The notes under the pieces are model-generated. The model was given only the letters and a program-made list of their open reading frames with translations, was not told the origin of the DNA and did not search any database. Of a stretch of 24,801 nucleotides of DNA, positions 2,703 to 22,898 are shown piece after piece. The DNA is from Bdellovibrio sp. (GTDB taxonomy: Bacteria > Bdellovibrionota > Bdellovibrionia > Bdellovibrionales > Bdellovibrionaceae). The DNA lies in NCBI GenBank assembly GCA_036676395.1, contig JAKFCY010000006.1:1-24801 (forward strand). The letters are read 5' to 3'. Each line of letters starts with the position of its first letter. Within the stretch, counting starts at the first letter, position 1. A program made the translations under genes and the position numbers.

Positions 2703-3490
2703 TATGGGCAGGGTTTTTCTTGTAATTTTCCATAAATCGTTCCGTCAATATCAAACTGACTATGTCCATATTCAAGTCTTATTATTTTTCCGCAATTCAC
2801 TTGAATTACAAAAGCAAAATTTTCCATTGAGGCTGACATATTTCCTGAACCATTCTCAATATGGTCTAAAAAGCCTGGTAAAGCTTTTTTCAATGGTTCT
2901 ATTTCGTCTCCAACCTTGAATTTGGGAATTGTCTTAGCCACAATATTCTGTCGGATTTCGTCAGTCATAAAACGGTACACCAAATTTGGGGCAATAAGTG
3001 GCAAAAACCACAAGAAAAATCCTAGAATTATTATTGGTGAGAGGAAAAATATTGTCTTTGTTATAGGTCTTTGGTTCAGCAAGTCAATCAGTTTTTCGGA
3101 CTTTATTAAAAGCGAGTAGGCTAATCCGAAGAAAAGTCCGACTAGAATTGCTTGGGGCAAAAACATTGTCACTAACTCAAAACTTCGAAAAAGGCCACCT
3201 ACAATTATTGAATAAGTCAATGCTCCGTAAACTGTCGATAAAACGGTAAAAATTGGTGGTTTGAATAGTTTTTTTGAGTGGTCAAGTCGACTTAATGGCC
3301 AAATAATGAAAACTGACCACGCAATTGTTATAAAAAGTCCCGACCAAAAAATAATCACTCCACTATCGTCTGCTTTTCCGTCTTCTGAAACAAGGTAAAT
3401 TGAATTGAGTATGTTCATCAATGTCCAAGCTATGGTCATTGAGAAAAATCCAATTGTTTGTTTAACGTTATTTATTTTCAGTGTCGTCAT
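2702..3490 (-). CDS. Multi-pass membrane hypothetical protein (cassette gene)
   Basis: About 5 hydrophobic segments; start set at ATG 3490 because the longer ORF runs across the cassette boundary GCCCATAAC (3500-3508). Confidence 0.75.
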   Translation of the reverse strand: MTTLKINNVKQTIGFFSMTIAWTLMNILNSIYLVSEDGKADDSGVIIFWSGLFITIAWSVFIIWPLSRLDHSKKLFKPPIFTVLSTVYGALTYSIIVGGLFRSFELVTMFLPQAILVGLFFGLAYSLLIKSEKLIDLLNQRPITKTIFFLSPIIILGFFLWFLPLIAPNLVYRFMTDEIRQNIVAKTIPKFKVGDEIEPLKKALPGFLDHIENGSGNMSASMENFAFVIQVNCGKIIRLEYGHSQFDIDGTIYGKLQEKPCP

Positions 3491-3499
3491 TTTTACCTT

Positions 3500-3629
3500 G
3501 CCCATAACATCTCGCAAATACACGCAGGGCGTGAGTTTCCCGCTGAACTTCCTACGAAGAGCTGCATTTCAAATTTACTTCTTTCCTGTCAACGAAGCAC
3601 CGAAACCCAACTTGCGGGTATTTTGCGGT
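3500..3629 (-). repeat. attC-like recombination site, split by a group II intron
   Basis: GCCCATAAC, then imperfect inverted arms GCAAATACACGCAG / CTTGCGGGTATTTTGC, then GT|intron|TACAAGC. Confidence 0.72.
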
Positions 3630-4075
3630 GTGTGCCTTGAATGGTGAATATAGGTCAATTAGTTGATCGTTCCAACGGGTAAAATGCGAAGCATTCATGA
3701 ACACCATTGAATACAAATACTTCGTGAATAAAGTCCCTTTAGCACGGGGGTAATCCCGTAGGGAAGGGAAAGGCTGTTCCGAAGCTAAGCAAGTGGTGGC
3801 GGTAGCTATCGGCATGGTTTACCGCGAGAGGACTGAGCGTTAAGAAAATATCCTGTGGATATTTTTAGTGAGGGGCCAGGCTGCGGACCAGCCTCCTTTT
3901 CTGCCTACTACTATAACTTTGTCATGGCTGAGAAGAAAAGGGTATGAATCGATGCTATCCTACTACCTCAAAACGCAACCTACAATCCAGTGAACCGCCG
4001 TATACGAGACCCGTACGTACGGTGGTGTGAGAGGCGCACCTCGTCAGAGAAATCTGGCGAGGCCGTCTACTCGAT
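3630..4075 (+). mobile_element. Internally deleted group IIC-like intron (5' end, last 37 codons of the intron-encoded protein, intact DV/DVI)
   Basis: 5' GTGTGCC; AADQPPFLPTTITLSWLRRKGYESMLSYYLKTQPTIQ* at 3880-3993; short DV ACCGCCGTATACG...CGTACGGTGGT with CGC triad; ends CTACTCGAT. Confidence 0.88.
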
Positions 4076-4120
4076 TACAAGCTGGGCTTCTGTCTGTGTT
4101 TGTATGTTCGTCAATAGCTG

Positions 4121-4792
4121 TCAAGTTTTTCCTTTAATTAATTTGTCAAGCTCGTTCGCATAGTTAGCAAGAATTAAATTTACTTCTTTCATTGAAGTTA
4201 CAAGGTTCTCAAAGTCAGGATATTTCTTTTGCAGCTCTTGTGGAGAAAGTCTCTTATTAATTTCTTCTTCCTTTGCGTTTTCAAGCCACTTACGAAACTT
4301 TGCGTGGTGTTCTGTCAAGTGCGGACGCAAACCATCATTTAATATTTTTCTTGTCAAGCCAATTAGTGCTTTTGTTGGGTCGTGGTCTTTCAAATATCTA
4401 CCCGGAACTGTTTTAATTTCGTCTCTTATGATGTTGAATAGCTTATACCAAGAGTCATAAATCTCTTCAATGCTGTCATTATTTTCGTCAATAAGTATTG
4501 CCGCCTTTCTTGTAGTTAATTCAATGTGAATTCGATTAGCGATGTATAAATTGTCGTGGTTACGTTCAACTTTAAAAACCATTTTAGGAGTTCCAGAAAT
4601 TTCGACTTCTAAATTTTGCCACCTGAATAATTTTGAAAATTGTCTTTTCAAAATTATCAGAGCAATTATGATAGCTAATATAATCCCTATGAAAATCCAA
4701 TCACTAGAAATTATTAGGGAAGGTTGTTTTCTTTCAAAAGCAACTCGAATAAGTTCGTGTGTTGAAGTGGTGTCTGTCATAGTTATTGCCAT
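4121..4792 (-). CDS. Single-TM hypothetical protein; candidate effector of the TIR operon
   Basis: TM segment WIFIGIILAIIIALIIL then a helical domain (IELTTRKAA, YDSWYKLF, LNDGLRPHLT); start overlaps the upstream TIR gene. Confidence 0.8.
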   Translation of the reverse strand: MAITMTDTTSTHELIRVAFERKQPSLIISSDWIFIGIILAIIIALIILKRQFSKLFRWQNLEVEISGTPKMVFKVERNHDNLYIANRIHIELTTRKAAILIDENNDSIEEIYDSWYKLFNIIRDEIKTVPGRYLKDHDPTKALIGLTRKILNDGLRPHLTEHHAKFRKWLENAKEEEINKRLSPQELQKKYPDFENLVTSMKEVNLILANYANELDKLIKGKT

Positions 4793-5337
4793 TTGTCACT
4801 GGTTCTATTGTTCGCAAAGATTGGATATGAATTGTCGGGCGTAATCTTGTTCCTGTCCTCAAATGCTTTGTGTATCCAACCTTGAACTTCCGCTGGATTT
4901 TTAGACCATTTATATAATTGTGCAAATCTATTTTTTTCATCTTTCCAATTGTCATAAAGTCTTGGAGGAATTGTATGTGGGTCAAATTTATTGTCGTTTA
5001 AAGGGTAGCTAGGCATGAAAATACCTAATAACCCAGAACGTGAATTAAATTGTGTTTGTCTTATACTTGAGCCAATTTCCCAATCAACGTGTTTTCGTTG
5101 CCAAGTGTTGTTTCCAATAAGCACAATGGTTACGGTAGAATCTCTTAAATATTCATCTCTAATTTTTTGTCTGATAGTTTCAGTTTGTAAGTTGGGAGCA
5201 ATTTCACCAATTTGAACTGATTTACTTATCATTATTTGGTGATAGTTTGCGAATAGTGCCTCAAATTGATTGCGATAAGTTTGGTCAGGCTCCGTATGGT
5301 GATAACTTACAAATACCTTATGAATGTTTGTTGCCAT
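4783..5337 (-). CDS. ThsB-like TIR domain protein (MTH538/DUF1863 type)
   Basis: KVFVSYHH, DSTVTIVLIG..TWQRKHVDWEI with the catalytic-position Glu. Confidence 0.88.
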   Translation of the reverse strand: MATNIHKVFVSYHHTEPDQTYRNQFEALFANYHQIMISKSVQIGEIAPNLQTETIRQKIRDEYLRDSTVTIVLIGNNTWQRKHVDWEIGSSIRQTQFNSRSGLLGIFMPSYPLNDNKFDPHTIPPRLYDNWKDEKNRFAQLYKWSKNPAEVQGWIHKAFEDRNKITPDNSYPIFANNRTSDKWQ

Positions 5338-5341
5338 ATTT

Positions 5342-5884
5342 TTAAAGTTTAAATCCTAAAAAGTTTATTGAATTACTTTCCTCACGTTCACGAGAATTAT
5401 TTATTTTGTATGCGTTATTAGTCCTGTTCCAGTAAGCATAGTTTACCTTGCTTTCAAAATCTCTTTCTAAATTTTCCCATTTCATACTAACTGCATATCC
5501 AGATTTTATATTGTCGGCTAATCTGTCAGGTACAGAATGACTGTCAGTTGGTAGGAAGATTGCCAAAAGCCCATTTGGCTTAAATGATTTCAAGGGGTCG
5601 TATGGATGGGTGTAACTTCGCAGGGATGCCCAAATCTCCCAGTCTATCCATTTTCGATATCCTGTTCTTGAACCAACTAAAACAACGGTCACGGAGCAGT
5701 TCCTCATTTTCTCACGAACCTTCTTATAAATTGTTTCATCTGTCAAGTGTCCAATGTCGTCTTTTAAAGAGTAGTCAGCCACTCTCATATTCGTAATGGT
5801 CTTGCGAAGTTTTGTCAAATATTTTTGGTCGTTGTCGTGATGGTAGCTCACAAAACAATTTCGTATTTTCTTTTCTATTGGCAT
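5342..5884 (-). CDS. ThsB-like TIR domain protein (MTH538/DUF1863 type)
   Basis: CFVSYHH..D, CSVTVVLVG..TGYRKWIDWEI. Confidence 0.88.
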   Translation of the reverse strand: MPIEKKIRNCFVSYHHDNDQKYLTKLRKTITNMRVADYSLKDDIGHLTDETIYKKVREKMRNCSVTVVLVGSRTGYRKWIDWEIWASLRSYTHPYDPLKSFKPNGLLAIFLPTDSHSVPDRLADNIKSGYAVSMKWENLERDFESKVNYAYWNRTNNAYKINNSREREESNSINFLGFKL

Positions 5885-6367
5885 TTATGAAGTAATTATT
5901 GCGTCCATAACGCCACTTAACGGGTGTACTGAACTACTATAGTTAGAAAACATTTTTCTTTCAAGAATAAGTTGTTTCTCTTGTCCTTGCTTCTTGATAA
6001 ATTCATTTATATCGTAAATATCTCGAATTATGGGTTTTGTTTTGATGTAATCAGGAAGGTCTGAATTTTTTATTCCTTTTAAAGTTAATGTTGCTAGGTC
6101 TGTTACATCATAGCCGTATCCAACTTCAAATGGAACCCATTTGGAAATCAATGTATTTGGAGAAACAATACAAAGCATATGTGTCGAACTTTTAATTCCT
6201 TTTTTAATGGCCGCAACAACAGCTTTAGGGTCGTTGTTTATGTCTGCTTGTTGTAATTCTTTATCAAACTCATCAAAGTAAACTGCTATGCCAACTGATA
6301 TTAAATAGTCAGCAATTTTTTTTGCCTCGTCTCTGTCACGTTTTTGGTGGCTTATAAATACTTTCAT
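5885..6367 (-). CDS. TIR domain protein (TIR_2-like)
   Basis: MKVFISHQ..D, VYFD, I..S.HMLCIVSPNT..SKWVPFEVG; ATG at 6367 (alternative TTG at 6376). Confidence 0.87.
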   Translation of the reverse strand: MKVFISHQKRDRDEAKKIADYLISVGIAVYFDEFDKELQQADINNDPKAVVAAIKKGIKSSTHMLCIVSPNTLISKWVPFEVGYGYDVTDLATLTLKGIKNSDLPDYIKTKPIIRDIYDINEFIKKQGQEKQLILERKMFSNYSSSVHPLSGVMDAIITS

Positions 6368-6412
6368 TTTTGTCAATAGTGTTTAATTGTTGATGTGTCG
6401 TCTGTTAGCCTT

Positions 6413-6547
6413 GCTTGTAACGTTTTGCAGCTACCTGAAGGGCGGGATTTTTACCACAAAACTACATTTGAAAAACTAATGTTTGTTTAACCACAAAACT
6501 GTCTTTGGAACACGAAACCCCGGCTTTTGGGTAGGTGCTGTTGCACT
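6413..6547 (-). repeat. attC-like site
   Basis: GCTTGTAAC-GTTTTGCAGCTACCTGAAGGGCGGG ... CCCGGCTTTTGGGTAGGTGCT-GTTGCACT; imperfect inverted arms around an AT-rich loop. Confidence 0.78.
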
Positions 6548-6798
6548 AAACCTGCGGTAGTTTCATATTCAATCTAAAATTTCTACTTTAGGTACGCTTA
6601 CGGTTCCAGATTTTAAAATTTTAACATTTGTAACCATCTGAAAGTCAAGCATTTGATTTTTTTTATTTTATGCGAATTTTTATAATTTAAATCACTGATT
6701 TTCAATTTCTTATAAGATTTTTCAATAGCGACGAAAAACCCATATATAAGGTGTCTCAATTCCGGTTCCCCCGAAAAAATCGGGGCAGGCAGTGCAAC
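6540..6798. other. Gene-less (non-coding) cassette
   Basis: Bounded by complementary GTTGCACT (6540-6547) and AGTGCAAC (6791-6798); no credible ORF inside. Confidence 0.62.
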
Positions 6799-6851
6799 AG
6801 CGGTTTCAATGTCCGTGCTACGCACTCGACGAAAACCTAGTTGTTATGTGC
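6791..6851 (-). repeat. Short attC-like site (about 50 bp between cores)
   Basis: AAC-AGCGGTTTC...GAAAACCTAGTT-GTT; a closely related right half recurs at about 10742-10772, 14699-14729 and 19401-19431. Confidence 0.7.
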
Positions 6852-6876
6852 TGGCATTGTATTAGGTTTCAACATG

Positions 6877-7422
6877 TCATACTCTATTTTTAACAATCAA
6901 TACTTCTTTTCCACTACCGTCTTCACCAATAAGGTATACTATTTTCATGTCTTTGTTTACGTTATTATAAACAACTCTTTTAAAACCCATTCTATGTTTA
7001 TTCTTTTCAAGTGGTTTTCCCCATAAAATTGTAAAATAAAAAGCAATAGTTCCATATTCAGAGGTTTCCATTGATATTGTGCCTTTCCATTGGTGATCGA
7101 TTTTTTCCGTATAATTATCGTGCATAGTTTGTTTGTGTGTAATTTCTAATTTGTTTTTTCTCAAATATTTAATTTCAGCCTCACCCATTGGTTTGTTGAA
7201 ATCAATTTCATCACCTTCTTTATCGATCCAATAGATGTCATATTTATTAGAAAGATTATTGAATTTTAAATAGGGTATCAGGATTTCTGTTATTAGTAGA
7301 ACAATACCTGTAGCAACAAGCGAAGTTATTATTGGTACTAGTAGTCCATCGGTTATGAAGCTTGAATCTTCGGTAATTGGAAAATATTCGCACCAAAGGG
7401 GAAAAAGATTTTTCATGTACAT
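6877..7422 (-). CDS. Hypothetical protein, N-terminal TM plus beta-rich domain
   Basis: TM LLVPIITSLVATGIVLLITEILI, then alternating beta-strand patterns; only gene between GTTATGTGC and GCACATAAC. Confidence 0.75.
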   Translation of the reverse strand: MYMKNLFPLWCEYFPITEDSSFITDGLLVPIITSLVATGIVLLITEILIPYLKFNNLSNKYDIYWIDKEGDEIDFNKPMGEAEIKYLRKNKLEITHKQTMHDNYTEKIDHQWKGTISMETSEYGTIAFYFTILWGKPLEKNKHRMGFKRVVYNNVNKDMKIVYLIGEDGSGKEVLIVKNRV

Positions 7423-7448
7423 AAATGTCTTGTGTTGGTTTTATGCTT

Positions 7449-7581
7449 GCACATAACGTTTTGCGGCTAAAAGAAGTGGCGGCTTTGGAACACTAAACCT
7501 TCTATACACACACTGTTTATTAATTGCACAACTGTTTATACTTGCACTTCTCCCGCCATTTTTTTAGGTGCTGTTATGAGC
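7449..7581 (-). repeat. attC-like site
   Basis: GCACATAAC-GTTTTGCGGCTAAAAGAAGTGGCGG ... CCGCCATTTTTTTAGGTGCT-GTTATGAGC. Confidence 0.8.
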
Positions 7582-7586
7582 CGTTT

Positions 7587-8231
7587 TTATATCAATCCTT
7601 TGTCTATTAGAAATTGTGTTTTAAACATTGAAAATTCTTTATCAGATTTTGCATTATCTATTATTTCGTCAAGAAGAATAGCTTGAAGTCCCACTGTTAG
7701 TTCTCGTGTATACTTGTCAATTAAATTTTGAAGTTCCTTTAATGCATCAGAACGCCTTTCAATTAGTTCTTTTCTGTTTAATTTTATTTCCTTCCATGTC
7801 AGCTCTCCTCTTTTACTGTCATTAATATGGAACAACATTGGGCCAAATGCCTGTAAATGTAAATCAACATCATCTTTATAAGGATTCAAAAGTTTACAAT
7901 TTTTATCTAATGTCGTTCTCTTATTGTTATTGCACCAATAACAAACAAATGATAAGTTATTCCAAGAAAATGTTAAACGTGGATAAACTGATTTAGGAAT
8001 TATATGTTCAACATCACCAGGATATTGATGAGTGATAAAACACTCGCAGTAAATACATTTTTCCTCTGTCTCAATCTTTACTTCAGTCTTAATGTCCGCA
8101 TGTCTGTAATGAGCTTGAACATGCGTTGGAACAGGTAGTCCAGAATTAATGAAACCCATTAATTGTTGTGTCCAATTTGGTCCGTTTACTAATAGAACGT
8201 TTGGTGCTGGTCTCTTTAATCGCTTTATCAT
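7587..8231 (-). CDS. HNH endonuclease, PtuB-like
   Basis: KCIYCE...DVEHIIPKS.YP.L.F.W.NL...C..CN..K, LLNPY.DD; 4-nt overlap with the ATPase gene. Confidence 0.87.
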   Translation of the reverse strand: MIKRLKRPAPNVLLVNGPNWTQQLMGFINSGLPVPTHVQAHYRHADIKTEVKIETEEKCIYCECFITHQYPGDVEHIIPKSVYPRLTFSWNNLSFVCYWCNNNKRTTLDKNCKLLNPYKDDVDLHLQAFGPMLFHINDSKRGELTWKEIKLNRKELIERRSDALKELQNLIDKYTRELTVGLQAILLDEIIDNAKSDKEFSMFKTQFLIDKGLI

Positions 8232-9475
8232 TTCTTTTTACTTTTTTCAATTAACGTTGCAACTGAAGTAGAAACATATTTATCTAGCCCTACTTTTTTA
8301 ATGTCAGACTTGAAGGATAAGATATTCTCTGGAGTAATACCAGAATCACTGTATTTTGTAATTATTTTGTCAAGTTCTTCGTCTACCCATTCAGGCATAG
8401 TTGTTTCAATCCCTAACACTTCCCTAAGAATGTCATTAGCGCTTCCAGATTTTTCAATATTTTCAAGAAGAATTGAGTCTACTTTACCATTAGCATTGTA
8501 ATTCAAAACAAAAACATTTGAGTCAGGAACTGAACTTATAATAAATGGATTATGAGTCGCAATAATAAATTGTACGTTTGGAAATGCTTTTAAAAAGTTG
8601 GGCAGAAGAGATTTTTGCATCTCAGGATGCAAATGATTTTCAGGCTCGTCTAATGTTACAACATATTCTTTTTGAGGTTCCTCAAACATATAAAGTTGCC
8701 AAGCAAGGTCTATAATTGAAGCTATTCCTCCAGAAACTGCATCTAAAGAGAAGTCTCCTGATCGAGTTATTAAAACTACTTCAGGTATTCGAATTGCTAT
8801 TTTCTCAAATCCTAACTTTGGAGGAAGGATTATTTTTAAAATTTCTTCAAATCCTCTAAAAATATTAACTGCCTCGCTATTTCTAATTACTACTTCATTT
8901 CCAAAGCCAAATGTTGCAAGTGAAATTAAAGTTTCCTTAATATGGTAGTTCTCGAATTTACCCCCACCACTTTGATACCGATTTACTTTTGCTTGATTAT
9001 ATTGGTTGTAAGCTTGTTGCTTTGTTATTACTTGGGTTGAAATATTTGAAATAGGTTGATATTTATAAACAGGTCTATGAGAAGGAATATGGAGGCCTTT
9101 TACAGCCTGCTGACCAGTGTAATTCAGATTATATGTTGTTCCTACTACTGCCGGAACGGTCAATTTGCATACTTTATCACCAACGTATTCTATGCTGCCA
9201 ACTTCAATATGATTATTTGGAATTTTGTCAATGTCATTTGAGTTGTCAAAAAGGGTTTTCCACATATCAGAGAAGAATTTCAACCCACCAGTTTTTTCAT
9301 CTCTAGTTGGTGTTCCAACGATTTCAGAAGGCCAGCCAAAATGTCGATTAACAGTATTCAATATAGTTGTTTTGCCAGCACCATTCGCACCAGTAAGTAT
9401 TGTCAGCCTTTTGTGAAAATCAATTTGAATATTTTCAAATTGCCTCCAATTTTTTATTGTTACCGATTTGAACAT
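8228..9475 (-). CDS. ABC/AAA ATPase, PtuA-like
   Basis: Walker A GANGAGKTT, signature VSGG, Walker B/D-loop LDEPENHLHP, H-loop IATHNP; likely start MFKSVTIKNWRQF at 9475. Confidence 0.88.
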   Translation of the reverse strand: MFKSVTIKNWRQFENIQIDFHKRLTILTGANGAGKTTILNTVNRHFGWPSEIVGTPTRDEKTGGLKFFSDMWKTLFDNSNDIDKIPNNHIEVGSIEYVGDKVCKLTVPAVVGTTYNLNYTGQQAVKGLHIPSHRPVYKYQPISNISTQVITKQQAYNQYNQAKVNRYQSGGGKFENYHIKETLISLATFGFGNEVVIRNSEAVNIFRGFEEILKIILPPKLGFEKIAIRIPEVVLITRSGDFSLDAVSGGIASIIDLAWQLYMFEEPQKEYVVTLDEPENHLHPEMQKSLLPNFLKAFPNVQFIIATHNPFIISSVPDSNVFVLNYNANGKVDSILLENIEKSGSANDILREVLGIETTMPEWVDEELDKIITKYSDSGITPENILSFKSDIKKVGLDKYVSTSVATLIEKSKKK

Positions 9476-9551
9476 TAGTTGTGTTTTTTGTTTAAAGTTG
9501 GTTAATCCAATTTTGTTATAAAACAATTATTTATCCCTGAAGTATTTTTTG

Positions 9552-9959: not shown

Positions 9960-9974
9960 AGTTTGTCTTTTTAA

Positions 9975-10772: not shown

Positions 10773-10786
10773 AGCTGCTGATGCTA

Positions 10787-16740: not shown

Positions 16741-16741
16741 T

Positions 16742-16914: not shown

Positions 16915-16948
16915 TGGCGGTTCGTTGTTTTATTATTTAAGCTATTAT

Positions 16949-17698
16949 TCAACTTTTTAAGCCTTTAAGATAAGCCTGATAATCTTCTTTCATTAATGCT
17001 TCGTCTGCTTTTCGTTTTACGGTAGCCTCGTTTCGGATATCAAACCAATTTGTTCCCATATTATCAACCCTTTGTTTTAATGCTGACAGATTGATATCTC
17101 TGCAATAAATAGAAGAACCTGGTTGCTGCTTCCATGATTGGGCAATCGTACCAATATCAAAAGGGTCAAAGCCTAATTCATCTACTAACTTAAATACAAC
17201 TTTTTTTGCTTTTGAATTATCAGATGAAATTGCAATAGCTATGCGGTTTTTATCGCTTTTTGGTTTGCCCATATCTTTCAGGCTTGTAGCAAGTATGGAA
17301 TTAAATGCTTTAACAACGGGAAACCCCAATTGCTCCTGAACCCAAAGACTATCTATGCCAGTATGATCAAGTTCAGTTATAAACCCATCACGAAGATTTG
17401 GGTAATAATTCATAGTGTCAATCACAACTACATCCTTCGAAAGGTTTTCAAAAATGTGCTTGAGATCAGGTGCATTTTTGGTAGGTATGGAGATAATGAT
17501 TACTTGTTTGTTTATAACTTCCTCAATAGTTACTGCCTCCGCTCCAATATCCTCCGTAAGTTTTTTTATGGAGGCTGGGCCACGGGAGTTAGCAATTGAA
17601 ACCGTATGTCTCATTTGAATAAGTTTTGATGCAAGGCAAATCCCCATTTCGCCTGAACCGATAATTCCTATATTCATAATTCGATTATTTATTGACAC
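16949..17698 (-). CDS. NAD(P)-binding oxidoreductase, F420-dependent NADP reductase-like
   Basis: IGIIGSGEMG Rossmann motif, IANSRGP, IDTMNYYP.RDG, VVKAFN; the true start may be the second Met. Confidence 0.87.
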   Translation of the reverse strand: MSINNRIMNIGIIGSGEMGICLASKLIQMRHTVSIANSRGPASIKKLTEDIGAEAVTIEEVINKQVIIISIPTKNAPDLKHIFENLSKDVVVIDTMNYYPNLRDGFITELDHTGIDSLWVQEQLGFPVVKAFNSILATSLKDMGKPKSDKNRIAIAISSDNSKAKKVVFKLVDELGFDPFDIGTIAQSWKQQPGSSIYCRDINLSALKQRVDNMGTNWFDIRNEATVKRKADEALMKEDYQAYLKGLKS

Positions 17699-17704
17699 TT
17701 CGGT

Positions 17705-18244
17705 TTAGCCTTGGGCAGAATGAAATTTCTCTTCATCTTTAGTCCTTGGGGCCCCAGTGCTGTTAGGCTGTCCTTTGCCAGTAGTAATCAAAGCCAACAA
17801 ACTTTGTCGGATATAGTGGTTCCATCCATTCGAACAAACATCAAAGCATTCATACTCCGGAACTAAACCAATGTGTGTGAAGCAGATTTGCGTTTTGTTA
17901 TCCTTTTCAAGGATTTCAAAAATAATTTTTGTACCCGTCCACTCGGCTTGGTCTTTTGTAAGTTTATTGTGATCAGGCAATTCATGAGCTGCCTCATTAA
18001 AAATTCCCGGTTTAAAATAGTTGTCCATCACAAGCCAGACGACTTTTTTGTTGACAATGGATTCTATTACTTTTATCTGACAACGATGAATATCTTCAAA
18101 ATGGTAATTAAACACATCATTGAGTTTGTCAGTACTGCCTTCAATTTCTTCCGACCACCATCCACGAGGGTTGTTGACGGCATTGAAAGCTTCCGTCGGA
18201 GTTTGGCTTACCAATATTGTAGTTGTAAAATCTGATTTTGTCAT
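17705..18244 (-). CDS. SRPBCC/AHSA1 domain protein
   Basis: WWSEEIEG, EWTGTKIIFEI, FTHIGLVP..ECF..CS.GW. Confidence 0.85.
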   Translation of the reverse strand: MTKSDFTTTILVSQTPTEAFNAVNNPRGWWSEEIEGSTDKLNDVFNYHFEDIHRCQIKVIESIVNKKVVWLVMDNYFKPGIFNEAAHELPDHNKLTKDQAEWTGTKIIFEILEKDNKTQICFTHIGLVPEYECFDVCSNGWNHYIRQSLLALITTGKGQPNSTGAPRTKDEEKFHSAQG

Positions 18245-18248
18245 TTCA

Positions 18249-18572
18249 TTAGTTGTTTAATTTGTTATTTAATAAATTTTGTAGATTGTTTAGTTTCGAT
18301 ATCCAGAATTTATCATAATAAGAAATCCAATTTTGCAGTTCATTGAATCCGTCCTGTTTGAGTATGCAATACCGCTCTCTTCCAATGTTCTGGATAGAGA
18401 TAAATCCTGCCGACTGCAATATTTTAATGTGTTTTGAAACTGCAGGTCGGCTCATTTCAAAATTTTCTGAAATGCTATTAATGTTGTAATTGTCTTTAGT
18501 AAGCATTTGTAAAATCTGTCGTCTGCTTGGGTCTGCAATTACTTGAAAAACATCAAGATTGGGAGTTGTCAT
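18249..18572 (-). CDS. ArsR/SmtB family transcriptional regulator
   Basis: DVFQVIADPSRRQIL, MSRPAVSKHIKIL, GRERY. Confidence 0.92.
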   Translation of the reverse strand: MTTPNLDVFQVIADPSRRQILQMLTKDNYNINSISENFEMSRPAVSKHIKILQSAGFISIQNIGRERYCILKQDGFNELQNWISYYDKFWISKLNNLQNLLNNKLNN

Positions 18573-18624
18573 AAATTAATGATTTAATTCAGTTTTTCAT
18601 TTATTCCGATATTCATTAATCGAA

Positions 18625-19056
18625 TTATTTTTTGGTGTTTATGATATCAAGCATTTGCTCGATTTTCTTCAACCAACCATCAGTCATACCGATAAAGATG
18701 TCTGTATTGTTTTCTCTAAAACCTGAATGTTTCAATTTCAATTTGGTTCCATTTTTGTGCGGTTCCAATGCCCACTCAACAATTGTATCGAGTGTAAAAA
18801 ACCCATCGCCAGAGCCACCCTTCCAAGTGTAGGTTAGCTTTTTCATTGGAATTATTTCAAGCACCTTGCAATGCATTATTCCGTCCAAATTAAGTGCAGG
18901 CATTGCTTTTGTTGTTAACTGAAACTCATGTCCGAGTTCAAGTTTGAAATTGTTTGGCATAAGCCATAAAGCGATCAGTTCAGCTTGTGTGAGATATTCC
19001 CAAACTTCGTTTGGAGATTGCTCATAAATCCATTCGTGGTTAATTTCTTTTTGCAT
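18625..19056 (-). CDS. SRPBCC/AHSA1 domain protein
   Basis: VWEYLT..ELIALWLMPNNF, L.YTW, T.L.L.HSGF; start MQKEI at 19056 because the longer ORF runs through the operator. Confidence 0.85.
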   Translation of the reverse strand: MQKEINHEWIYEQSPNEVWEYLTQAELIALWLMPNNFKLELGHEFQLTTKAMPALNLDGIMHCKVLEIIPMKKLTYTWKGGSGDGFFTLDTIVEWALEPHKNGTKLKLKHSGFRENNTDIFIGMTDGWLKKIEQMLDIINTKK

Positions 19057-19060
19057 ATTA

Positions 19061-19104
19061 TGTAACTTTGAAGTTACAAATATATGTGTAACTTTTGAGT
19101 TACA
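19061..19104. promoter_or_regulatory. Tandem palindromic operators TGTAACT-N4-AGTTACA (probable ArsR sites)
   Basis: Two perfect copies (19061-19078, 19087-19104) just upstream of the SRPBCC-ArsR operon. Confidence 0.75.
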
Positions 19105-19175
19105 CAAAATATTCTATGAAATTTTTTGGGATGATTATTGGAAGGAAGATAGATGCTTGTTTTGGTTGGTTTTTC

Positions 19176-19431
19176 AATTCTGACTAACGAACCTCAAAAG
19201 TCTTGAATTTCAGCTGTTTTGTGGCCCGGATCGTCTTCGGTGAGACCGTCCCGTAAGTTACGGGATGCTTCTTTATCCTTTTAACTAATCCCAACTTTCT
19301 TTTCTGATCCGGAATAAGGTATCCTTCGGGGTTGATATTGACAAGAAAGGTGTTTTTAGGTATGGAACCCTTTCATTGTTCCCGCCGTAGCGGTCAAGCT
19401 GCGCTACGCACGCAACGAAAGCTTAGTTGTT
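19176..19431. repeat. Long non-coding repeat, copy C (internally deleted)
   Basis: Matches about 9975-10161, joined to about 10705-10772. Confidence 0.85.
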
Positions 19432-19460
19432 ACCGGCTGCTCTTTTTATGCTCGTTCAAT

Positions 19461-20069
19461 TTATAAATCAATTGTCCTGAAAGTTAAGTTTATTCTTGGT
19501 TCGATTATTAGCTTTGTCGGGGGAAGTCTGTGTAGCCAATTTGTTTGGGTATTGTCTTTCATTACCAATAAACTACCGTGTTCTAAAATTAATGAAATGG
19601 TTTCTTTCGTTTCTTTGTGTTTGAAGGCAAATTTGCGTTCTGCTCCAAAACTTAACGAACCAATTGCTCCATTTTTCTTTAAATCTTTTTCTGCATCGCT
19701 ATGCCAAGCCATTCCTTCATCACCATTGTGGTATAAGTTGAGTAAGCAGGAATTGAATTTTTCGCCTGTTATTTCTTCCGTAAGTGATTTTAATTCTAAT
19801 AATTCCCTTGTCCAGGGTAAGGCTCGTTTTGTGGTGTTAGAATAGGTGTATTCAAAATTAGTATCACCATGCCAAGCTACTTTCCGTTTTGTAATTATTA
19901 GTTTTCCATAGATAATAGCCTGATCATTTTTCCACTCGATTGTATTCATTAAACAGTCGAAATAATGATTTGCCTCTTTGTTGGGCAATAGTTTTCCGTA
20001 ATAATTTACAACACCATCTTTGGGCAGTAAGTTTTTTGAGCCGTCTATTTTGTTATCGAATAAATCCAT
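19461..20069 (-). CDS. alkB: AlkB family alpha-ketoglutarate-dependent dioxygenase
   Basis: FNSCLLNLY..G..GMAWHSD (HxD), W.H.LP, RINLTFR. Confidence 0.92.
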   Translation of the reverse strand: MDLFDNKIDGSKNLLPKDGVVNYYGKLLPNKEANHYFDCLMNTIEWKNDQAIIYGKLIITKRKVAWHGDTNFEYTYSNTTKRALPWTRELLELKSLTEEITGEKFNSCLLNLYHNGDEGMAWHSDAEKDLKKNGAIGSLSFGAERKFAFKHKETKETISLILEHGSLLVMKDNTQTNWLHRLPPTKLIIEPRINLTFRTIDL

Positions 20070-20293
20070 TTTTTATATGCTGTTTTCATACAATGCCCAC
20101 AAGGTCTATAACCGTTTTTAAAAGCTTCACTTTCCGATGCAAAGAAAACTCTGTTTTCCCGTTTCATTCGTTTACCTGATTTACATTTTAGTGTTCCGTA
20201 TATTTTTAACTTTCCATTTCCTCCAAAGAAAATTTCTTTTTGCTTGATTTTCCTTCTTAAATCGCTATCGTTTATTTCAAGATGTTTTATCAT
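20045..20293 (-). CDS. Small Ada metal-binding domain protein
   Basis: IYG.L.C.SGKRMKRENRVFF.SE.EA...GYRPCGHC. Confidence 0.85.
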   Translation of the reverse strand: MIKHLEINDSDLRRKIKQKEIFFGGNGKLKIYGTLKCKSGKRMKRENRVFFASESEAFKNGYRPCGHCMKTAYKKWIYSITK

Positions 20294-20296
20294 TCT

Positions 20297-21016
20297 CTAA
20301 CTCAAAGCATCGTGAAAAATAATTCCCAGAGTGTGTCGCTCTCCACTATGGATTTCACTTACTCCATGTTTCATATTTACACGATAGTATCCTTTACTAC
20401 CTTTTACCGGTCTAAAGTTAGTTGTAAAAATCAGCATATCGCCTTTCATTGGTTTTAATACTATTGCTTTTGATTGTGCTCTTGGCGTTTGTTGGGTTAA
20501 TACAAATTCTCCACCTGTAAAATCTTGATCCGGCTCGTTTAAAAATAAAACGGTTTGAATTGGAAAATATACATCTCCATACAAATCTTGATGCAGGGTA
20601 TTGTGTCCGCCTTTACCATATTTCAAAATTAAAACGGTTGCTTTTGTTTGGTTATTTTCATTACACTGTTTCAGAAGATCCTGAAGTGTATCAGGAAAAA
20701 GCGTAGCGATATTTAGCACTTTCATCCAGGCGTTTGCAATTGGTGCAAGTTTGGGATATATGCTTTCTCTAATGCTTTGAATTAAATTAGGCAATGGATA
20801 ATTGAAATATTTGTATTCACCCAAGCCAAAACGGTAGCGTTCCATCACTACCGTTTTTCTGTAAGCATTTGGATTGTTATAATTCCTTATCAATTCGGTA
20901 CATTGCTCGTTTGTTAAGAGTTTTGGAATTATAGCAAACCCTTTTGCGTGCATTTCTTCAACTATATTTTTCCAGTCAATTGAGGCTATTTTTTCTTTTA
21001 CTTCAATATCTGTCAT
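20297..21016 (-). CDS. 2OG-Fe(II) oxygenase (DUF2086-like)
   Basis: LHQDLYG, FTGGEFVL, HGVS....GERHTLGIIFHDA. Confidence 0.88.
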   Translation of the reverse strand: MTDIEVKEKIASIDWKNIVEEMHAKGFAIIPKLLTNEQCTELIRNYNNPNAYRKTVVMERYRFGLGEYKYFNYPLPNLIQSIRESIYPKLAPIANAWMKVLNIATLFPDTLQDLLKQCNENNQTKATVLILKYGKGGHNTLHQDLYGDVYFPIQTVLFLNEPDQDFTGGEFVLTQQTPRAQSKAIVLKPMKGDMLIFTTNFRPVKGSKGYYRVNMKHGVSEIHSGERHTLGIIFHDALS

Positions 21017-21741
21017 AGTTTAACTGATGCTATTTCCAAAAATATTTCACACAATTCTTGGGGTTTGCTAAAAAAAGGTGAATGGCTGGTTTGCATTTTA
21101 TAAACCTTTTCGCAAACCATTTCTGTGTACATTTTTTGTTGAATAAAAGGGGTTACCGCTTTGTCTTTTGTACATTCTATATAATACCTGGGTACACTTC
21201 CGTATTTTTCGTTGGTGAGTTGCAATGGTGTAATTCCTGTTACTGCACTTTCGTGGCTTAGTATCATCCTAGCCATTTGGTATATATCATCATCACAATC
21301 GTGGTATAGTCCTTCTTTGTAAATTTCTGGTTGTAATGTATGGGAATTTGTATTTGGAAATCTTGTTACATAAGGTTTTAAAACACCATTAACGTCTTGT
21401 GAAGAATAATCTGCTTGTGTTTTTGCATTGGGAATTAAATATGCAGCAAGGTAAATTAATTTTTCAATTTTTTCAGGACGGTATTCTGCAACTTGCGAAA
21501 TCATAATCCCGTTTTTGCTATGCCCAACAAGTATTACCTGGTCATCAATGCCATCGATAAGTTTGCAAATTTCCTCTACTGTAGATTCTAATGTTACTTC
21601 TTTAATGGGAGTTTTATCTCGTCCCATTCCAGGCAAATCAATTGCGAATGCTTTGTGTCCTTGTTTTTCTAAAATTGGAACAACTTTGTGCCAATTCCAA
21701 GAGCTATGCCACGAACCGTGTATTAAAATAAATGTCTTCAT
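21013..21741 (-). CDS. Alpha/beta hydrolase (methylesterase-like)
   Basis: FILIHGSWH, DLPG.G, LVGHSKNG nucleophile elbow, D.AV, SHSPF. Confidence 0.88.
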   Translation of the reverse strand: MKTFILIHGSWHSSWNWHKVVPILEKQGHKAFAIDLPGMGRDKTPIKEVTLESTVEEICKLIDGIDDQVILVGHSKNGIMISQVAEYRPEKIEKLIYLAAYLIPNAKTQADYSSQDVNGVLKPYVTRFPNTNSHTLQPEIYKEGLYHDCDDDIYQMARMILSHESAVTGITPLQLTNEKYGSVPRYYIECTKDKAVTPFIQQKMYTEMVCEKVYKMQTSHSPFFSKPQELCEIFLEIASVKL

Positions 21742-21792
21742 TTTTTATTGTTTAAAAATTATAATGCAAAAATGCACATCATTAAAAAATAA

Positions 21793-21812
21793 TAAAACCC
21801 GAAACTTGCTAA
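21793..21812. promoter_or_regulatory. 20-bp motif TAAAACCCGAAACTTGCTAA, copy 1 (candidate regulator box)
   Basis: Identical to 22706-22725; about 50 nt upstream of the hydrolase start. Confidence 0.6.
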
Positions 21813-22669
21813 ATTAATTCTGAATGTGTTTTTGTTCCTTCCCAACCTATGATGGCTGTTTTTCTTGTATTTCCCCACATATACCCGCCAATTACTCCTG
21901 TAGATTGTATTACACGATGACAGGGAATTAAGAACGCAACAGGATTGCTTCCAATGGCAGTTCCTACTGCTCTTGAAGCATTTGGCTTCTCAATTTTATT
22001 GGCAATAGTTCCATAGGTTGTAAGCTGTCCCATTGGAATTTTTAAAAGTGTTTGCCATACTTTTAGTTGAAAATCAGTTCCTTTTAAGTGCAGTTTTATT
22101 TGATTCAATTTTGTCCAATCGTGTCTGAAAATGTATAGTGCATTTTGCTGAATTAAATCTACCATTTGTTTGTATTGAGCATTGGGAAAATGACTGAGCA
22201 TTGTTGGCAGTGCAACAGATTCATCATCGGAAAATGCCATATAACAAATTCCTTTTTCTGTTGATGCCACTAAAATGTTTCCAAAAGGGCTTTCTGCAAA
22301 GCTGTAATTTATAGCTAAATCTTTTCCGCCATTTTTATATTCGGCAGGTGTCATACCTTCTATGTTGATAAACAGGTCGTGTAAACGACCTGTGCCTGAA
22401 AGTCCAGTTTCGTGTGCCGTTTCAAAAAGTGTTGCTTGATTTTCTTTTAATAAAGTTTTAGCGTATTCTACGGTTGTATATTGCAAAAATTTCTTTGGAC
22501 TTGTTCCTGCCCATTCGCTAAAGAGCCGTTGAAAATGAAATGAGCTTAGATGAACCTTCTTTGCAACTTCGTCAAGATTGGGTTGCTCTTTAAAGTTTGT
22601 TTTTATATACTCAATTGCTTCAGCAATTCTTTTATAATTGATATTTTGTTGTTCGGTCATTGTATTCAA
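21809..22669 (-). CDS. ada: Bifunctional AraC-HTH / methylated-DNA-protein-cysteine methyltransferase (Ada-like)
   Basis: HFQRLF..WAG.SPK HTH; GTDFQLKVW, ASRAVG.A...NP, IPCHRV active site. Confidence 0.9.
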   Translation of the reverse strand: MNTMTEQQNINYKRIAEAIEYIKTNFKEQPNLDEVAKKVHLSSFHFQRLFSEWAGTSPKKFLQYTTVEYAKTLLKENQATLFETAHETGLSGTGRLHDLFINIEGMTPAEYKNGGKDLAINYSFAESPFGNILVASTEKGICYMAFSDDESVALPTMLSHFPNAQYKQMVDLIQQNALYIFRHDWTKLNQIKLHLKGTDFQLKVWQTLLKIPMGQLTTYGTIANKIEKPNASRAVGTAIGSNPVAFLIPCHRVIQSTGVIGGYMWGNTRKTAIIGWEGTKTHSELI

Positions 22670-22705
22670 ATTTATAATACGAAGTTCGATATAAATTTGT
22701 CATCA

Positions 22706-22725
22706 TAAAACCCGAAACTTGCTAA
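22706..22725. promoter_or_regulatory. 20-bp motif TAAAACCCGAAACTTGCTAA, copy 2 (candidate regulator box)
   Basis: Identical to 21793-21812; about 40 nt upstream of the ada start. Confidence 0.6.
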
Positions 22726-22769
22726 TTTTTAGTTCGTATGTTGAGTGTAAACAGTGTCGTTGCAGAGTT

Positions 22770-22898
22770 GCCGATATGGGTTCGGGGCTTGGCGAATAAT
22801 CGGATTTCGAAGCGCTAAACTGTCTGTCAGCACTGAACTTGATACGAAGCGCAAAGCTTCAATTAAGCATTGAACCCGCTTTTTTACCAAACCGCTGT
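22770..22898 (-). repeat. Degenerate attC-like site followed by an intron 5' end
   Basis: GCCGATATG (decayed partner of GTTACCGGC at 19429) ... TTTTTACCAAACCGCTGT|GTGTGCC. Confidence 0.6.

Follow-up and report, generated by a model that had tools for sequence, protein, structure and literature searches.

The stretch of DNA analysed here (24,801 nucleotides; the window) carries a run of co-oriented genes in blocks whose two ends complement each other, which raises the question of whether these blocks are gene cassettes. A first-pass annotation had taken the DNA for that of a Bacteroidota genome with an integron-like cassette system, in which cassettes can hold several genes and cores deviate from GTTRRRY. 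The cassette-like blocks are confirmed, and this reading is supported: with a probability of roughly 80%, the window holds about 22 kb of a genuine integron-like gene-cassette array of the Bacteroidota type. The type of system is already known: Ross et al. 2019 described such arrays in Bacteroidales under the name rAID-1 (recombinase-associated acquired interbacterial defence).

The array and its cassettes

The array is at least 24 kb long, starting near position 2534 and running beyond the right end of the window to about position 32780 of contig C54. Its GC content is 32–40% over most of its length, compared with 42.3% for the genome and 45–47% for the left flank. Every long ORF between 2702 and 24667 lies on the minus strand, as had been claimed for all genes. 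Cassettes consist of one to four co-oriented genes each, with folded recombination sites (attC) in between. The blocks are as follows; fractions give the variable core bases that are complementary between the two ends of a block.

2302–2533, no strand: flank (blaR-like gene 3′ end, terminator, about 100 bp), corresponding to one of the two copies of a diverged 232-bp direct repeat; the other is on contig C117
2703–3508, minus: cassette B1, one 273-aa ORF without a family; ends [GT]TATGGGC / GCCCATAAC; 6/6
4076–6421, minus: cassette B2, three ThsB-like TIR proteins and a 223-aa protein without a family; ends [GT]TACAAGC / GCTTGTAAC; 6/6
6540–6798, plus: block B3, non-coding, conserved as a unit with the following hairpin in two further species; 5/6
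6843–7457, minus: cassette B4, one 181-aa ORF without a family; 6/6
7573–9968, minus: block B5, Septu PtuB (7587–8231; PADLOC 222 bits), PtuA (8228–9526; 550 bits) and a 135-aa ORF; no matching right core; 1/6
10770–12058, minus: cassette B6, two overlapping ORFs (206 and 212 aa) without a family; 6/6
12747–13978, minus: cassette B7, PD-T7-4 homologue (12757–13386; PADLOC 267 bits) and a 191-aa ORF; starts directly at the attI remnant; 6/6
14727–15278, minus: cassette B8, DUF4440/SnoaL-like protein of 146 aa, also in another species and bounded there at the cores; 5/6
15958–16795, minus: block B9, 176-aa protein with a match to HATPase_c_4 (recG-C-terminal-like); lacks a partner core
16915–19169, minus: block B10, NADP oxidoreductase-like protein, 179-aa ORF, ArsR, AHSA1; no partner core; 1/6
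19429–22778, minus: block B11, AlkB-like protein, 82-aa ORF, DNA-damage oxygenase, alpha/beta hydrolase, Ada-like protein; upstream core decayed; 5/6, with ATG for AAC
23161–24801, minus: further cassette genes, Cass2/GyrI-like (23194–23655) and an AHSA1-glyoxalase fusion (23696–24667)

The cargo is accessory: Septu, PD-T7-4 and three ThsB-like TIR proteins, along with an operon for alkylation repair and small stress or ligand-binding proteins. The alkB and ada genes of B11 are neighbours in many congeners, with 67–76% identity, and a Pfam scan assigned no family to 10 of the 28 minus-strand ORFs.

The 232-bp repeat appears to bracket the array. Its copy at 2302–2533 is 93% identical (215/232) to the copy on C117, which lies 308–539 nt from the end of that contig. 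In four relatives the homology passes from this left flank directly into C117-like DNA, and the array locus is empty in all four close relatives examined (4/4). The genome assembly, 99.99% complete in 140 contigs, is broken at repeats. Logan contigs revealed no recombination event, circle or empty site at the resolution of a single cassette; in contigs from a second study, some of these blocks recur with 0 differences and the breaks fall at the same repeats, which is compatible with shuffling without demonstrating it.

Complementary cores at block boundaries

We set the junction cores without reference to pairing: on one side the 6 variable nucleotides that follow GTT (or the 3′ end of an intron), on the other the 6 that precede AAC. 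All 16 end motifs (16/16) on which the first-pass annotation had based its block-specific complementarity were present where it had placed them. At least five of the six variable core bases were complementary in 8 of 10 blocks, a result reached by 0 of 100,000 permutations of block assignment; core pairs drawn from different blocks reached 5/6 in 6 of 100 cases. By our own estimate, several GTT-anchored inverted pairs of 9-mers lying within a few kilobases of each other are expected by chance per 20 kb when position is unconstrained, so the complementarity is significant only because the pairs fall exactly on the junctions.

We found no partner core for B5, B9 and B10, the blocks starting at 7573, 15958 and 16915 that had already been described as partnerless. 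The right end of B11 reads GCCGAT-ATG instead of ...AAC, and we regard this upstream core as decayed; the pair 19429/22770, previously called degenerate, is complementary in 5/6 bases and lacks the AAC. This also bears on the proposed cassettes of up to 5 genes and 3.3 kb: multi-gene cassettes of two to four genes are verified, the largest being B2 (2.35 kb, four genes spaced by at most 5 nt), whereas the five-gene, 3.3-kb B11 has the decayed end.

Boundaries at the cores were borne out by homologous blocks in other species. B8 occurs in species G053 with 80% identity, and the homology ends at GTT... and CGCACAA|C; B3 and its hairpin occur in species G074 and G045, with different DNA past G|TT on both sides. 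Chains of complementary ends are also present in arrays of Pedobacter, Rhodonellum, Saprospiraceae, Bacteroidales, Ignavibacteria and Algoriphagus.

A covarying attC fold

The spacers contain the following sites and repeats.

3500–3629, minus: attC of B2, intact to ...GCGGT, then an intron at GT/T
6413–6547, minus: attC type A, top strand AAC-A-GCACCTACC...GGTAGCTGC-AAAAC-GTT
6791–6851, plus: attC type C, a short hairpin of repeat family D13 in which, relative to the genes, the unpaired-base asymmetry mirrors that of type A
7449–7581, minus: attC type A
9969–10778, no strand: full copy of the composite non-coding family II repeat, ending on the right in a type C hairpin arm, ...CGAAAACCTAGTT GTT
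12050–12180, minus: attC of B7, split at GT/T
14284–14735, no strand: family II repeat, truncated copy
15271–15394, minus: attC of B9, split at GT/T
19170–19437, no strand: family II repeat, internally deleted short copy
22770–22898, minus: attC type A, split at GT/T

The attC hairpins, about 135 nt long, belong to a family common to Bacteroidota and Ignavibacteria. We aligned 49 sites, of which this genome contributed 6 and other taxa 43. AACA and CGTT do not vary among them, and of the 22 pairs in the consensus structure, 19 show compensatory changes. On the gene strand, 1 unpaired nucleotide follows AAC and 5 precede GTT; the outer boxes, ...AAC and GTT..., bear the cassette-specific complementary bases. 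The z-scores of single-sequence folds against shuffles were −1.46, −1.45, −0.69, −2.40, −0.61, +0.75 and −0.09, with only 1 of 7 below −2. Since the folding energies are no better than those of shuffles, it is the covariation alone that supports the fold. Neither the type C sites nor the family II repeat fits the consensus architecture; the full family II copy includes a dispersed repeat (about 10256–10456) and matched no Rfam family.

The first-pass annotation had named two findings that would speak against it, homologous blocks with boundaries unrelated to the cores and spacers without a common fold; we found blocks that end at the cores and a common fold. Its description of the spacers as imperfect hairpins applies to 6413–6547, 6791–6851 and 7449–7581, whereas the long spacers are an attC plus an intron, or a composite repeat.

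Group II introns in the long spacers

Introns account for most of the long spacers.

2585–2702, plus: second group II intron type, 3′ fragment (D5/D6-like), abutting the last cassette at the distal array end
3630–4075, plus: ORF-less group IIC-type intron, 446 nt, GTGTGCC...CTACTCGAT, Rfam RF00029
12181–12746, plus: ORF-less group IIC-type intron, 566 nt
15395–15957, plus: ORF-less group IIC-type intron, 563 nt, 5′ half divergent
16796–16914, plus: second intron type, 3′ fragment
22899–23160, plus: ORF-less intron, 5′ part, truncated at the 3′ end

The bases that precede 4076, 12747, 15958, 16915 and 2703 are ...CTCGAT or ...CCGAC, which are group II intron 3′ ends. The split "GT|" ends at 4076 and 12747 had been taken for cassette ends; these ends and the spacers of 560–690 nt are intron insertions that had gone unrecognised, and the missing GT of three intron copies lies 446–566 nt upstream, at the intron 5′ junction. 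The introns begin with GTGTGCC and end with CTACTCGAT, between exon junctions of the form ...GT/T..., and the copies are mosaic, their domain V regions being of two kinds. The RF00029 match (3993–4075) scored 41.7 bits against a gathering score of 40. The fragment at 2585–2702 is an 88% repeat of 16796–16907 (family D14) and ends ...CCTACCGAC|TATGGGC. A 142-aa ORF (15244–15672) on the strand opposite the intron at 15395–15957 is probably spurious. The genome has no group II reverse transcriptase over the cut-off, only fragments at contig ends. In at least four attC sites, the ORF-less introns have entered the inner box at GT/T by reverse splicing, on the strand that faces the genes.

Published group IIC-attC introns behave in this way: passages of PMC7923331 and PMC3001079 place them by a TTGT/T rule at R″, on the bottom strand and against the direction of transcription. 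Introns of this kind (S.ma.I2 type) and those in the window share a small class C-like ribozyme, several copies per array, and insertion against cassette transcription, at GT/T of the box nearest the gene and immediately behind the hairpin. They differ in that all copies in the window (446–566 nt) lack an intron-encoded protein and that the target attC belongs to a non-IntI system.

An Xer-like recombinase and its attI

13969–14177, minus: fossil platform, made up of the 47 C-terminal codons of a recombinase gene (14022–14162) and, after them, the attI core CATATAAATGA|GTTATGCATA

The recombinase remnant lies in the middle of the array; it scored 53.9 bits against TIGR02249 and is 76.6% identical to the C-terminus of an intact recombinase on contig C50, and its attI core is common to other loci. 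The C50 enzyme is Xer-like and heads a sister array in the order purN, recombinase, attI (...AAACAA GTTAGCGGT), co-oriented cassettes with matching ends. It scored 230 bits against NF040815 (cut-off 220) and 218.7 bits against TIGR02249, below the cut-off of 265; it has no counterpart of residues ~210–242 of the VchIntIA chain (2a3v), that is, no IntI insertion. No canonical integron integrase (TIGR02249 over the cut-off) was found in 81 genomes of the genus, this one and 80 sampled congeners.

Around 80 related loci, 64 type A attC sites lie in 257 kb downstream of the recombinase and 3 in 598 kb upstream, and all of these matches (67/67) are on the recombinase strand. Among loci with at least 1 kb of downstream sequence, a type A site was found in 27 of 47 and not in 20; 26 of the 80 contigs end less than 400 bp after the recombinase gene. 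The attI core lies within 250 nt of the recombinase stop codon in 40/59 loci, compared with 1/145 control windows. Bacteroidales homologues of the C50 recombinase, 48–55% identical, head arrays with the same attC family.

Discussion

Could the complementary ends and hairpins be due to chance, or to terminators or REP elements between operons, with no cassette system at all? The single-sequence folds are not significantly stable, and inverted 9-mers are common if position is left free. This explanation is nevertheless already contradicted by the permutations (0/100,000), by compensatory changes at 19/22 pairs over 49 sites from many taxa, by shared cassettes that end at the cores between species, and by the strand-specific association of attC with the recombinase. 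That the window is an ordinary CALIN, left over from a canonical integron whose classical IntI was lost or unassembled, with the Xer-like recombinase an unrelated neighbour, we consider very improbable. Such an origin would fit the classical AAC/GTT cores with their cassette-specific complementarity, an array without an intact integrase in the window, and the repeat-broken assembly of 140 contigs. Yet TIGR02249 over the cut-off is absent from this 99.99% complete genome and from all 81 sampled genomes of the genus; phylum-wide, sites of this attC family occur downstream of the Xer-like recombinase and on its strand (64 versus 3); a conserved attI core stands behind the recombinase stop codon (40/59 versus 1/145); and the remnant inside the window is of exactly this recombinase with its attI.

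The remaining alternatives concern what the array does. It is unlikely that it serves, as rAID-1 islands do in gut Bacteroidales, as a store of orphan immunity genes against interbacterial toxins: 10/28 ORFs without a Pfam family leave space for such genes, but the identifiable cargo is anti-phage (Septu, ThsB-like TIR, PD-T7-4), DNA-alkylation repair and small stress proteins, and no immunity-protein family was recognised in the Pfam and PADLOC scans. A possibility of more weight, compatible with our explanation of the origin, is that the array is real but fossil here, having arrived as a block, with cassettes that have ceased to move. The recombinase is cut down to 47 codons, introns split four attC sites while a fifth has given way to an intron fragment, and the array, bracketed by repeat copies of 93% identity, occupies a locus that is empty in 4/4 close relatives. 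Because the window array has no intact recombinase, B5, B9 and B10 lack partners and the B11 core has decayed, much of the array may be fixed. On the other side, five to six blocks retain 6/6 complementary cores, three attC sites are intact, the C50 recombinase with its attI could act in trans, and the second-study contigs with identical blocks are compatible with shuffling, though only that.

Taken as IntI plus attI plus attC (the IntegronFinder definition), sedentary chromosomal integrons and CALINs, such as the Vibrio superintegron, share with the present array co-oriented, promoterless-looking cassettes, attC hairpins with ...AAC and GTT... boxes, attC sites that resemble one another across the whole array, cassette-specific complementarity implying a crossover at G|TT, an attI adjoining the recombinase gene, and low GC. 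Here, in contrast, the recombinase has no IntI-specific insertion, carries an additional N-terminal domain and is co-oriented with the cassettes; the attC sites have 1 versus 5 unpaired nucleotides beside the outer stem and form a sequence family conserved phylum-wide; and verified cassettes hold up to 4 genes. "Inverted-integrase" integrons exist in Spirochaetota and Chlorobi, and their integrases carry the IntI-specific domain. In them, as in the present system, the integrase gene immediately precedes the cassettes and points the same way; the domain sets them apart. Passages of the Ghaly preprint describe typical Spirochaetota IntIs as being in reverse orientation and call the IntI-specific domain, which the present recombinase lacks, necessary for integron recombination; Cury et al. 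2016 concluded that recombinases without intI_Cterm near attC "are not IntI". Both statements speak against our explanation. Defence-gene cargo is a further feature in common with integrons, for which it is reported in the Darracq et al. preprint.

Excerpts of Ross et al. 2019 (bioRxiv 10.1101/471110) describe rAID-1 as integron-like arrays behind an XerD-like recombinase, reported in 226/423 Bacteroidales genomes. Judged by that description of its recombinase, rAID-1 agrees with our finding that C50 homologues in Bacteroidales head arrays with the same attC family. It differs in its host, which here is a Cyclobacteriaceae-type environmental genome, and in its T6SS immunity genes, in place of which the recognised cargo here is anti-phage and repair genes; the hairpin structure, G|TT boundaries and attI core do not appear in those excerpts.

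The platform of the window array itself has probably been lost. If the array can still move, it probably relies on the C50 recombinase acting in trans. In the system as we reconstruct it, the Xer-like tyrosine recombinase, without the IntI insertion and with an extra N-terminal domain of about 100 aa, would perform cassette recombination, acting at an attI core TAAAYRA|GTT about 100 nt downstream of its own gene, and cassettes would excise as circles and insert at G|TT.

Cassette ends and cargo of the array

Every end motif listed in the first-pass annotation was found at its position, and all long ORFs from 2702 to 24667 lie, as it had said, on the minus strand. Junction cores were set independently of pairing, as the six variable bases after GTT and the six before AAC. 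On this definition, the proposal that each block carries its own complementary ends held: at least five of the six core bases were complementary in 8 of the 10 blocks, a result equalled by none of 100000 permutations. Complementarity was 6/6 in B1, B2, B4, B6 and B7, 5/6 in B3, B8 and B11, and 1/6 in B5 and B10; the three blocks said to lack a partner (B5, B9 and B10) indeed have no partner core. Cassettes with verified ends hold one, two or four genes, which bears out the multi-gene cassettes in part, as the five-gene block B11 has a decayed core, reading ...GCCGAT-ATG upstream where ...AAC is expected. The alkB and ada genes of B11 are adjacent in many congeners. The GC content of the array is 32–40%, versus 42.3% for the genome.

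Features of the array: blocks, cargo and copies of the non-coding repeat family II
2703-3508, minus: block B1
4076-6421, minus: B2, three ThsB-like TIR proteins and a protein without family (PADLOC)
6540-6798: B3, non-coding
6843-7457, minus: B4
7573-9968, minus: B5, Septu (PtuA 550 bits, PtuB 222 bits; PADLOC)
9969-10778: family II copy
10770-12058, minus: B6
12747-13978, minus: B7, PD-T7-4 homologue (PADLOC)
14284-14735: family II copy
14727-15278, minus: B8
15958-16795, minus: B9
16915-19169, minus: B10
19170-19437: family II copy
19429-22778, minus: B11
after ~23161, minus: B12
C54:32420-32780, at the end of the window's contig: one more family II copy, beside the three in the window
Other cassette proteins (Pfam): Cass2/GyrI-like, AHSA1, glyoxalase, SnoaL-like, ArsR, and an Ada/AlkB/oxygenase operon

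The three ThsB-like TIR genes stand in a row at 4121-6376, next to the gene of a 223-aa protein without family, and no ThsA was recognised; possibly they are a Thoeris variant packed into one cassette. Scans with Pfam and PADLOC assigned the cargo to defence, repair and stress functions, matched no immunity family, and left ten ORFs without a family.

Two blocks could be followed into other species, where, as a cassette system would have it, they are bounded at the cores. B8 occurs in one related genome (G053) at 80% identity, with similarity running from GTT to CGCACAA, one base short of C. The non-coding B3 recurs in two others (G074 and G045) together with the short hairpin on its right, and the sequence beyond G/TT is unrelated on both sides. 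B3 and its hairpin travel together in three species (window 6540-6851; locus L019, 4131-4427; locus L020, reverse, ~700-1010). Both the complementarity within cassettes and the presence of cassettes in different contexts place the boundary at G/TT, as in integrons. A motif, GGTTCGTTGTTT, was also seen just inside B10 (16915-16935) and B12 (23155-23170), and at a G045 cassette start (L020, reverse, ~1003-1030).

The attC sites share a fold supported by compensatory changes

The ~135-nt attC hairpins of the array, termed type A, were collected with a profile built from six such sites of the source genome, which matched 20 sites in this genome; among 80 loci taken from other Bacteroidota and from Ignavibacteria, it matched 67. 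Across 49 aligned sites, AACA and CGTT are invariant, and the consensus structure has 22 pairs, 19 of them with compensatory changes; the spacers therefore share a fold, as the first-pass annotation supposed. On the gene strand, the outer stem (xYAAC/GTTRx) gives way to a single unpaired base in the 5′ arm and to five in the 3′ arm; inward of these come a 9-bp stem that contains one mismatch, a further two stems and a variable middle of ~75 nt. The sites are imperfect inverted repeats with R″ and R′ boxes and a hairpin, as attC sites are. The unpaired architecture of canonical attC sites differs from the 1 nt versus 5 nt of type A. Since single-sequence folding was not convincing (z-scores from −2.40 to +0.75, below −2 in only 1 of 7 sites), support for the fold comes from comparison between sites. 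Counted by hand in the 49-site alignment table, wobble versus A.C cells showed no strand bias, with ~37 wobble cells on the gene strand and ~36 that would be wobble on the other. Chains of complementary ends join successive sites in arrays of Pedobacter, Rhodonellum, Saprospiraceae, Bacteroidales, Ignavibacteria and Algoriphagus.

In the window, the spacers at 6413-6547, 7449-7581 and 6791-6851 are the uninterrupted imperfect hairpins; the long ones consist of an attC plus an intron, or of a composite repeat, so that the description of all spacers as hairpins holds for these three. The site at 6791-6851 is of a second, shorter kind (type C), whose asymmetry is opposite to that of type A, the five unpaired bases having changed arms. 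Three source-genome loci have both types (the window and contigs C110 and C47), and in each of them the type C site is inverted relative to type A. One attC on C50, the contig with the intact recombinase and a sister array, is chimeric (L006, 9583-9715): its 5′ arm is a type C 3′ arm in reverse complement (AAC AACTAGGTTTTG), its 3′ arm is of the type A kind, and the two do not pair with each other.

The type C arm recurs in family II, a composite non-coding repeat. It opens as such an arm and with AATTCTGACTAAC; its far end is a hairpin arm of type C with GTT, and it has its own GTTAGTCAG there. Within it (10256-10456) lies a dispersed repeat present on many contigs and in many congeners, and the blocks that follow family II are without partner cores. 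Two other origins were considered for this repeat. As a decayed recombinase gene it should resemble the C50 protein, and tblastn with that protein matched only a 47-codon C-terminal piece, so we rejected this origin. A group II intron on the same strand is unsupported: there is no Rfam family for family II at E up to 5, apart from a meaningless lncRNA match, and the same 'GTGCG' hairpin is contained in the short type C site.

Group II introns interrupt several attC sites

The 'GT/' that precedes several block starts in the first-pass annotation is not a matter of notation: group II intron 3′ ends (...CTCGAT or ...CCGAC) precede the blocks at 2703, 4076, 12747, 15958 and 16915. Rfam places group II domains V-VI (RF00029) at 3993-4075 on the plus strand, and a scan of the whole window (gathering score; E up to 1) returned intron matches only; the contigs C50, C139 and C126 gave no Rfam match. 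Four copies start with GT/GTGTGCC, at 3630, 12181, 15395 and 22899. Three of them end in ...GCCGTCTACTCGAT/T, at 4075, 12746 and 15957, and the fourth is truncated; further copies are found on C126 and C50, and fragments of a second intron type end at 2702 and 16914. The introns are ORF-less mosaics of 446-566 nt. Their exon junctions, GCGGT/T, CCTGT/T and GCTGT/T on the plus strand, are opposite to the genes and lie directly after the hairpin, adjoining the gene. A 142-aa ORF without family (15244-15672, minus) runs antisense over an attC and the 5′ half of an intron, and is probably not a gene.

Group IIC-attC introns are described as inserting, against the direction in which the cassettes are transcribed, into TTGT/T in the R″ box of the bottom strand (PMC7923331, PMC3001079), and the window copies follow the same rule on the same strand. 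From their size and target, rather than from a class-specific model, we infer that they are class C. They differ from the IIC-attC lineage in the reverse transcriptase, which that lineage encodes within the intron, whereas none of the window copies contains an ORF of at least 50 aa with a reverse transcriptase family. In the source genome, no group II reverse transcriptase passed the cut-off, and only fragments scoring below it were found, at the ends of two contigs, C86 and C127. There, a protein-coding group II intron appears to be split between the contig ends (C86:37300-38579 and C127:2277-2768), with 131 and 51 bits to Rfam D1-D4 models and 108-158 bits for the reverse transcriptase fragments; it might supply the enzyme in trans to the ORF-less copies.

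Public runs were compared as assembled Logan contigs. In one metagenome contig of another study, the attC at 6413-6538 runs into an intron 5′ end (joint 6538>12178, side 58), so that populations differ in which sites an intron occupies. The joints 10780>12054, 14729>19175 and 12178>12055 were set aside for short sides or unknown letters between the sides. B2, B5 and B7 had little or no cover in runs X5-X7 of a second study, which is not usable as evidence of absence.

A recombinase without the IntI-specific stretch is associated with such arrays

No protein of the source genome, or of any of 81 genus genomes, matched the integron-integrase model TIGR02249 over its cut-off. The best match to an integrase model is a protein of 367-382 aa on C50, between purN and the co-oriented array. 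It passes NF040815 ('XerA/integron integrase') with 230 bits against a cut-off of 220, and fails TIGR02249 with 218.7 bits against 265, in two pieces that skip profile positions 179-238. Residues ~210-242 of VchIntIA (2a3v) have no counterpart in it, so that the IntI-specific domain near patch III, by which canonical integrons are defined, is absent; its closest solved relative is archaeal XerA.

A putative attI, ...AAACAA/GTTAGCGGT, lies 75 nt after the recombinase stop codon on C50; the first cassette ends in ACCGCTAAC, and the next two cassettes match their ends likewise. The attI also stands beside the recombinase gene in related loci, as a core, and in the window as a remnant (13969-14021). 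There, the last 47 codons of a paralogue of the C50 recombinase (14022-14162, minus; 76.6% identical) precede CATATAAATGA/GTTATGCATA, where cassette B7 begins. The terminal ~47 codons of this recombinase family also occur as isolated fragments at C131:69579-69719 (51% identity) and, more weakly and in two shorter pieces, at C110:94439-94563. With three intact and four intron-split type A or C sites and this 47-codon remnant as its only recombinase, the window has the make-up of a CALIN, in which two or more attC sites stand without an integron integrase close by.

The first 16 codons of the longest C50 recombinase ORF (L006, 1110-1157) resemble short stretches on more than 20 contigs, and therefore belong to a dispersed repeat; the true initiation codon is probably that for Met at 1155, which is also where the orthologues start. 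The extra N-terminal domain has a confident predicted fold (pLDDT 83). In VIA-align, its matches were the UvsW N-terminal domain (Z 6.8, rmsd 2.2, 62 aa), XPB DRD (Z 5.5-5.6), eIF1 (Z 5.3-5.7) and HARP (Z 3.5), all below the reliability bar. We discarded a HARP identity for this domain, as Pfam gave nothing even at E 10 and Foldseek no match at E up to 0.001 (SMARCAL1 HARP, E 0.17), alongside the VIA-align score.

Of 401 genomes sampled from the phylum with a completeness of 90% or more, 130 have a recombinase homologue (E up to 1e-55). In 80 related recombinase loci, the 257 kb downstream of the recombinase contain 64 type A sites and the 598 kb upstream contain 3, all of them on the recombinase strand. 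Downstream sequence reaches 1 kb or more in 47 loci, and 27 of these have a type A site; 26 contigs break within 400 bp after the recombinase gene. The attI core, TAA[AG][ACT][AGT]A/GTT, lies at most 250 nt from the stop codon in 40 of 59 loci, mostly at 92-107 nt, and in 1 of 145 control windows.

The array appears to be bracketed by a diverged direct repeat

Similarity of the left flank to the four closest relatives (G054, G084, G051 and G009) stops at 2428-2532 and continues collinear with another contig of the source genome, C117; the next 18 kb of these relatives contain no type A site. A 232-bp direct repeat, 93% identical, is present at 2302-2533 and on C117 at 308-539 nt from its end, and comprises a blaR-like 3′ end, a terminator and ~100 bp. 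In the relatives the site is empty, with blaR joined directly to C117-like DNA, and C54 and C117 end in the same dispersed tandem repeat. The empty site, the direct repeat and the common tandem repeat give the array the look of an insertion, at least 24 kb long, between diverged copies of a direct repeat, which suggests that it arrived or was lost as a block. We found no overlap between C50 and the window's contig; the end of C50 resembles that of C51. Four tandem 54-nt repeats (2099-2314) in the 3′ part of the BlaR1/M56-like gene (431-2377) encode a repeated Glu/Lys-rich segment.

Discussion

Judged by sequence comparison, the window contains a genuine integron-like cassette array of the Bacteroidota type with an I2-less recombinase, partly decayed, intron-ridden and loaded with defence genes. 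Under the IntI-domain definition, almost no integrons are reported in Bacteroidota in the IntegronFinder 2.0 preprint and the Darracq preprint; for Bacteroidetes, surveys give only In0 elements or a single Salinibacter integron (IntegronFinder 2.0 preprint). Recombinases near attC sites that lack the IntI domain were judged not to be IntI (Cury et al. 2016), and the insertion is called 'not fully conserved' in an integron-like subgroup (Smyshlyaev et al. 2021).

The general system is partly published as rAID-1, described in 226 of 423 Bacteroidales genomes as an XerD-like recombinase with co-directional low-GC genes and intergenic repeats 'reminiscent of integrons' (Ross et al. 2019). Its definition asks for a 5′ XerD-like recombinase more than 44% identical to BF9343_RS08045 (Ross et al. 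2019). Bacteroidales relatives are 48-55% identical to the C50 protein. At least two co-directional downstream genes, lower GC and repetitive intergenic sequences are found in both the C50 array and the window array. For rAID-1, the cargo is described as orphan immunity genes against interbacterial toxins; the window cargo named by Pfam and PADLOC is defence, repair and stress. Apart from rAID-1, we found no description of an I2-less integron in Bacteroidota in the literature searched. The window array is a well-documented example, a variant of a kind already known in outline.

A wider reading, to which we give about one chance in five, is that Bacteroidota carry a second, phylum-wide integron lineage. 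Its integrase, lacking the I2 insertion, would have at its N terminus a relative of the domains by which UvsW, XPB and SMARCAL1 recognise branched DNA, and would read another asymmetry, one versus five unpaired bases by the outer stem, with looser control of strand and orientation than IntI. The outcome might then be visible in the window, where B3 and family II would be non-coding cassettes that carry mirror-image type C sites and were inserted the other way round from the normal cassettes about them, and in chimeric sites like that at C50:9583-9715.

To the known outline, the window adds that introns of the IIC-attC type recognise the sites of a Bacteroidota array in the same way as classical attC sites, that a defence system with as many as four genes travels in one cassette, and that a fossil recombinase and attI can lie in mid-array. 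This array and its relatives offer a natural enzyme with which the long-held claim that hairpin recombination cannot do without the insertion can be put to a direct test. Full integron anatomy, with attI, folded attC sites and cassette-specific cores, stands behind a recombinase that lacks the IntI-specific domain; a large reservoir of mobile genes, accessory and anti-phage, in the Bacteroidota of soil, water and gut is therefore invisible to the standard tools.
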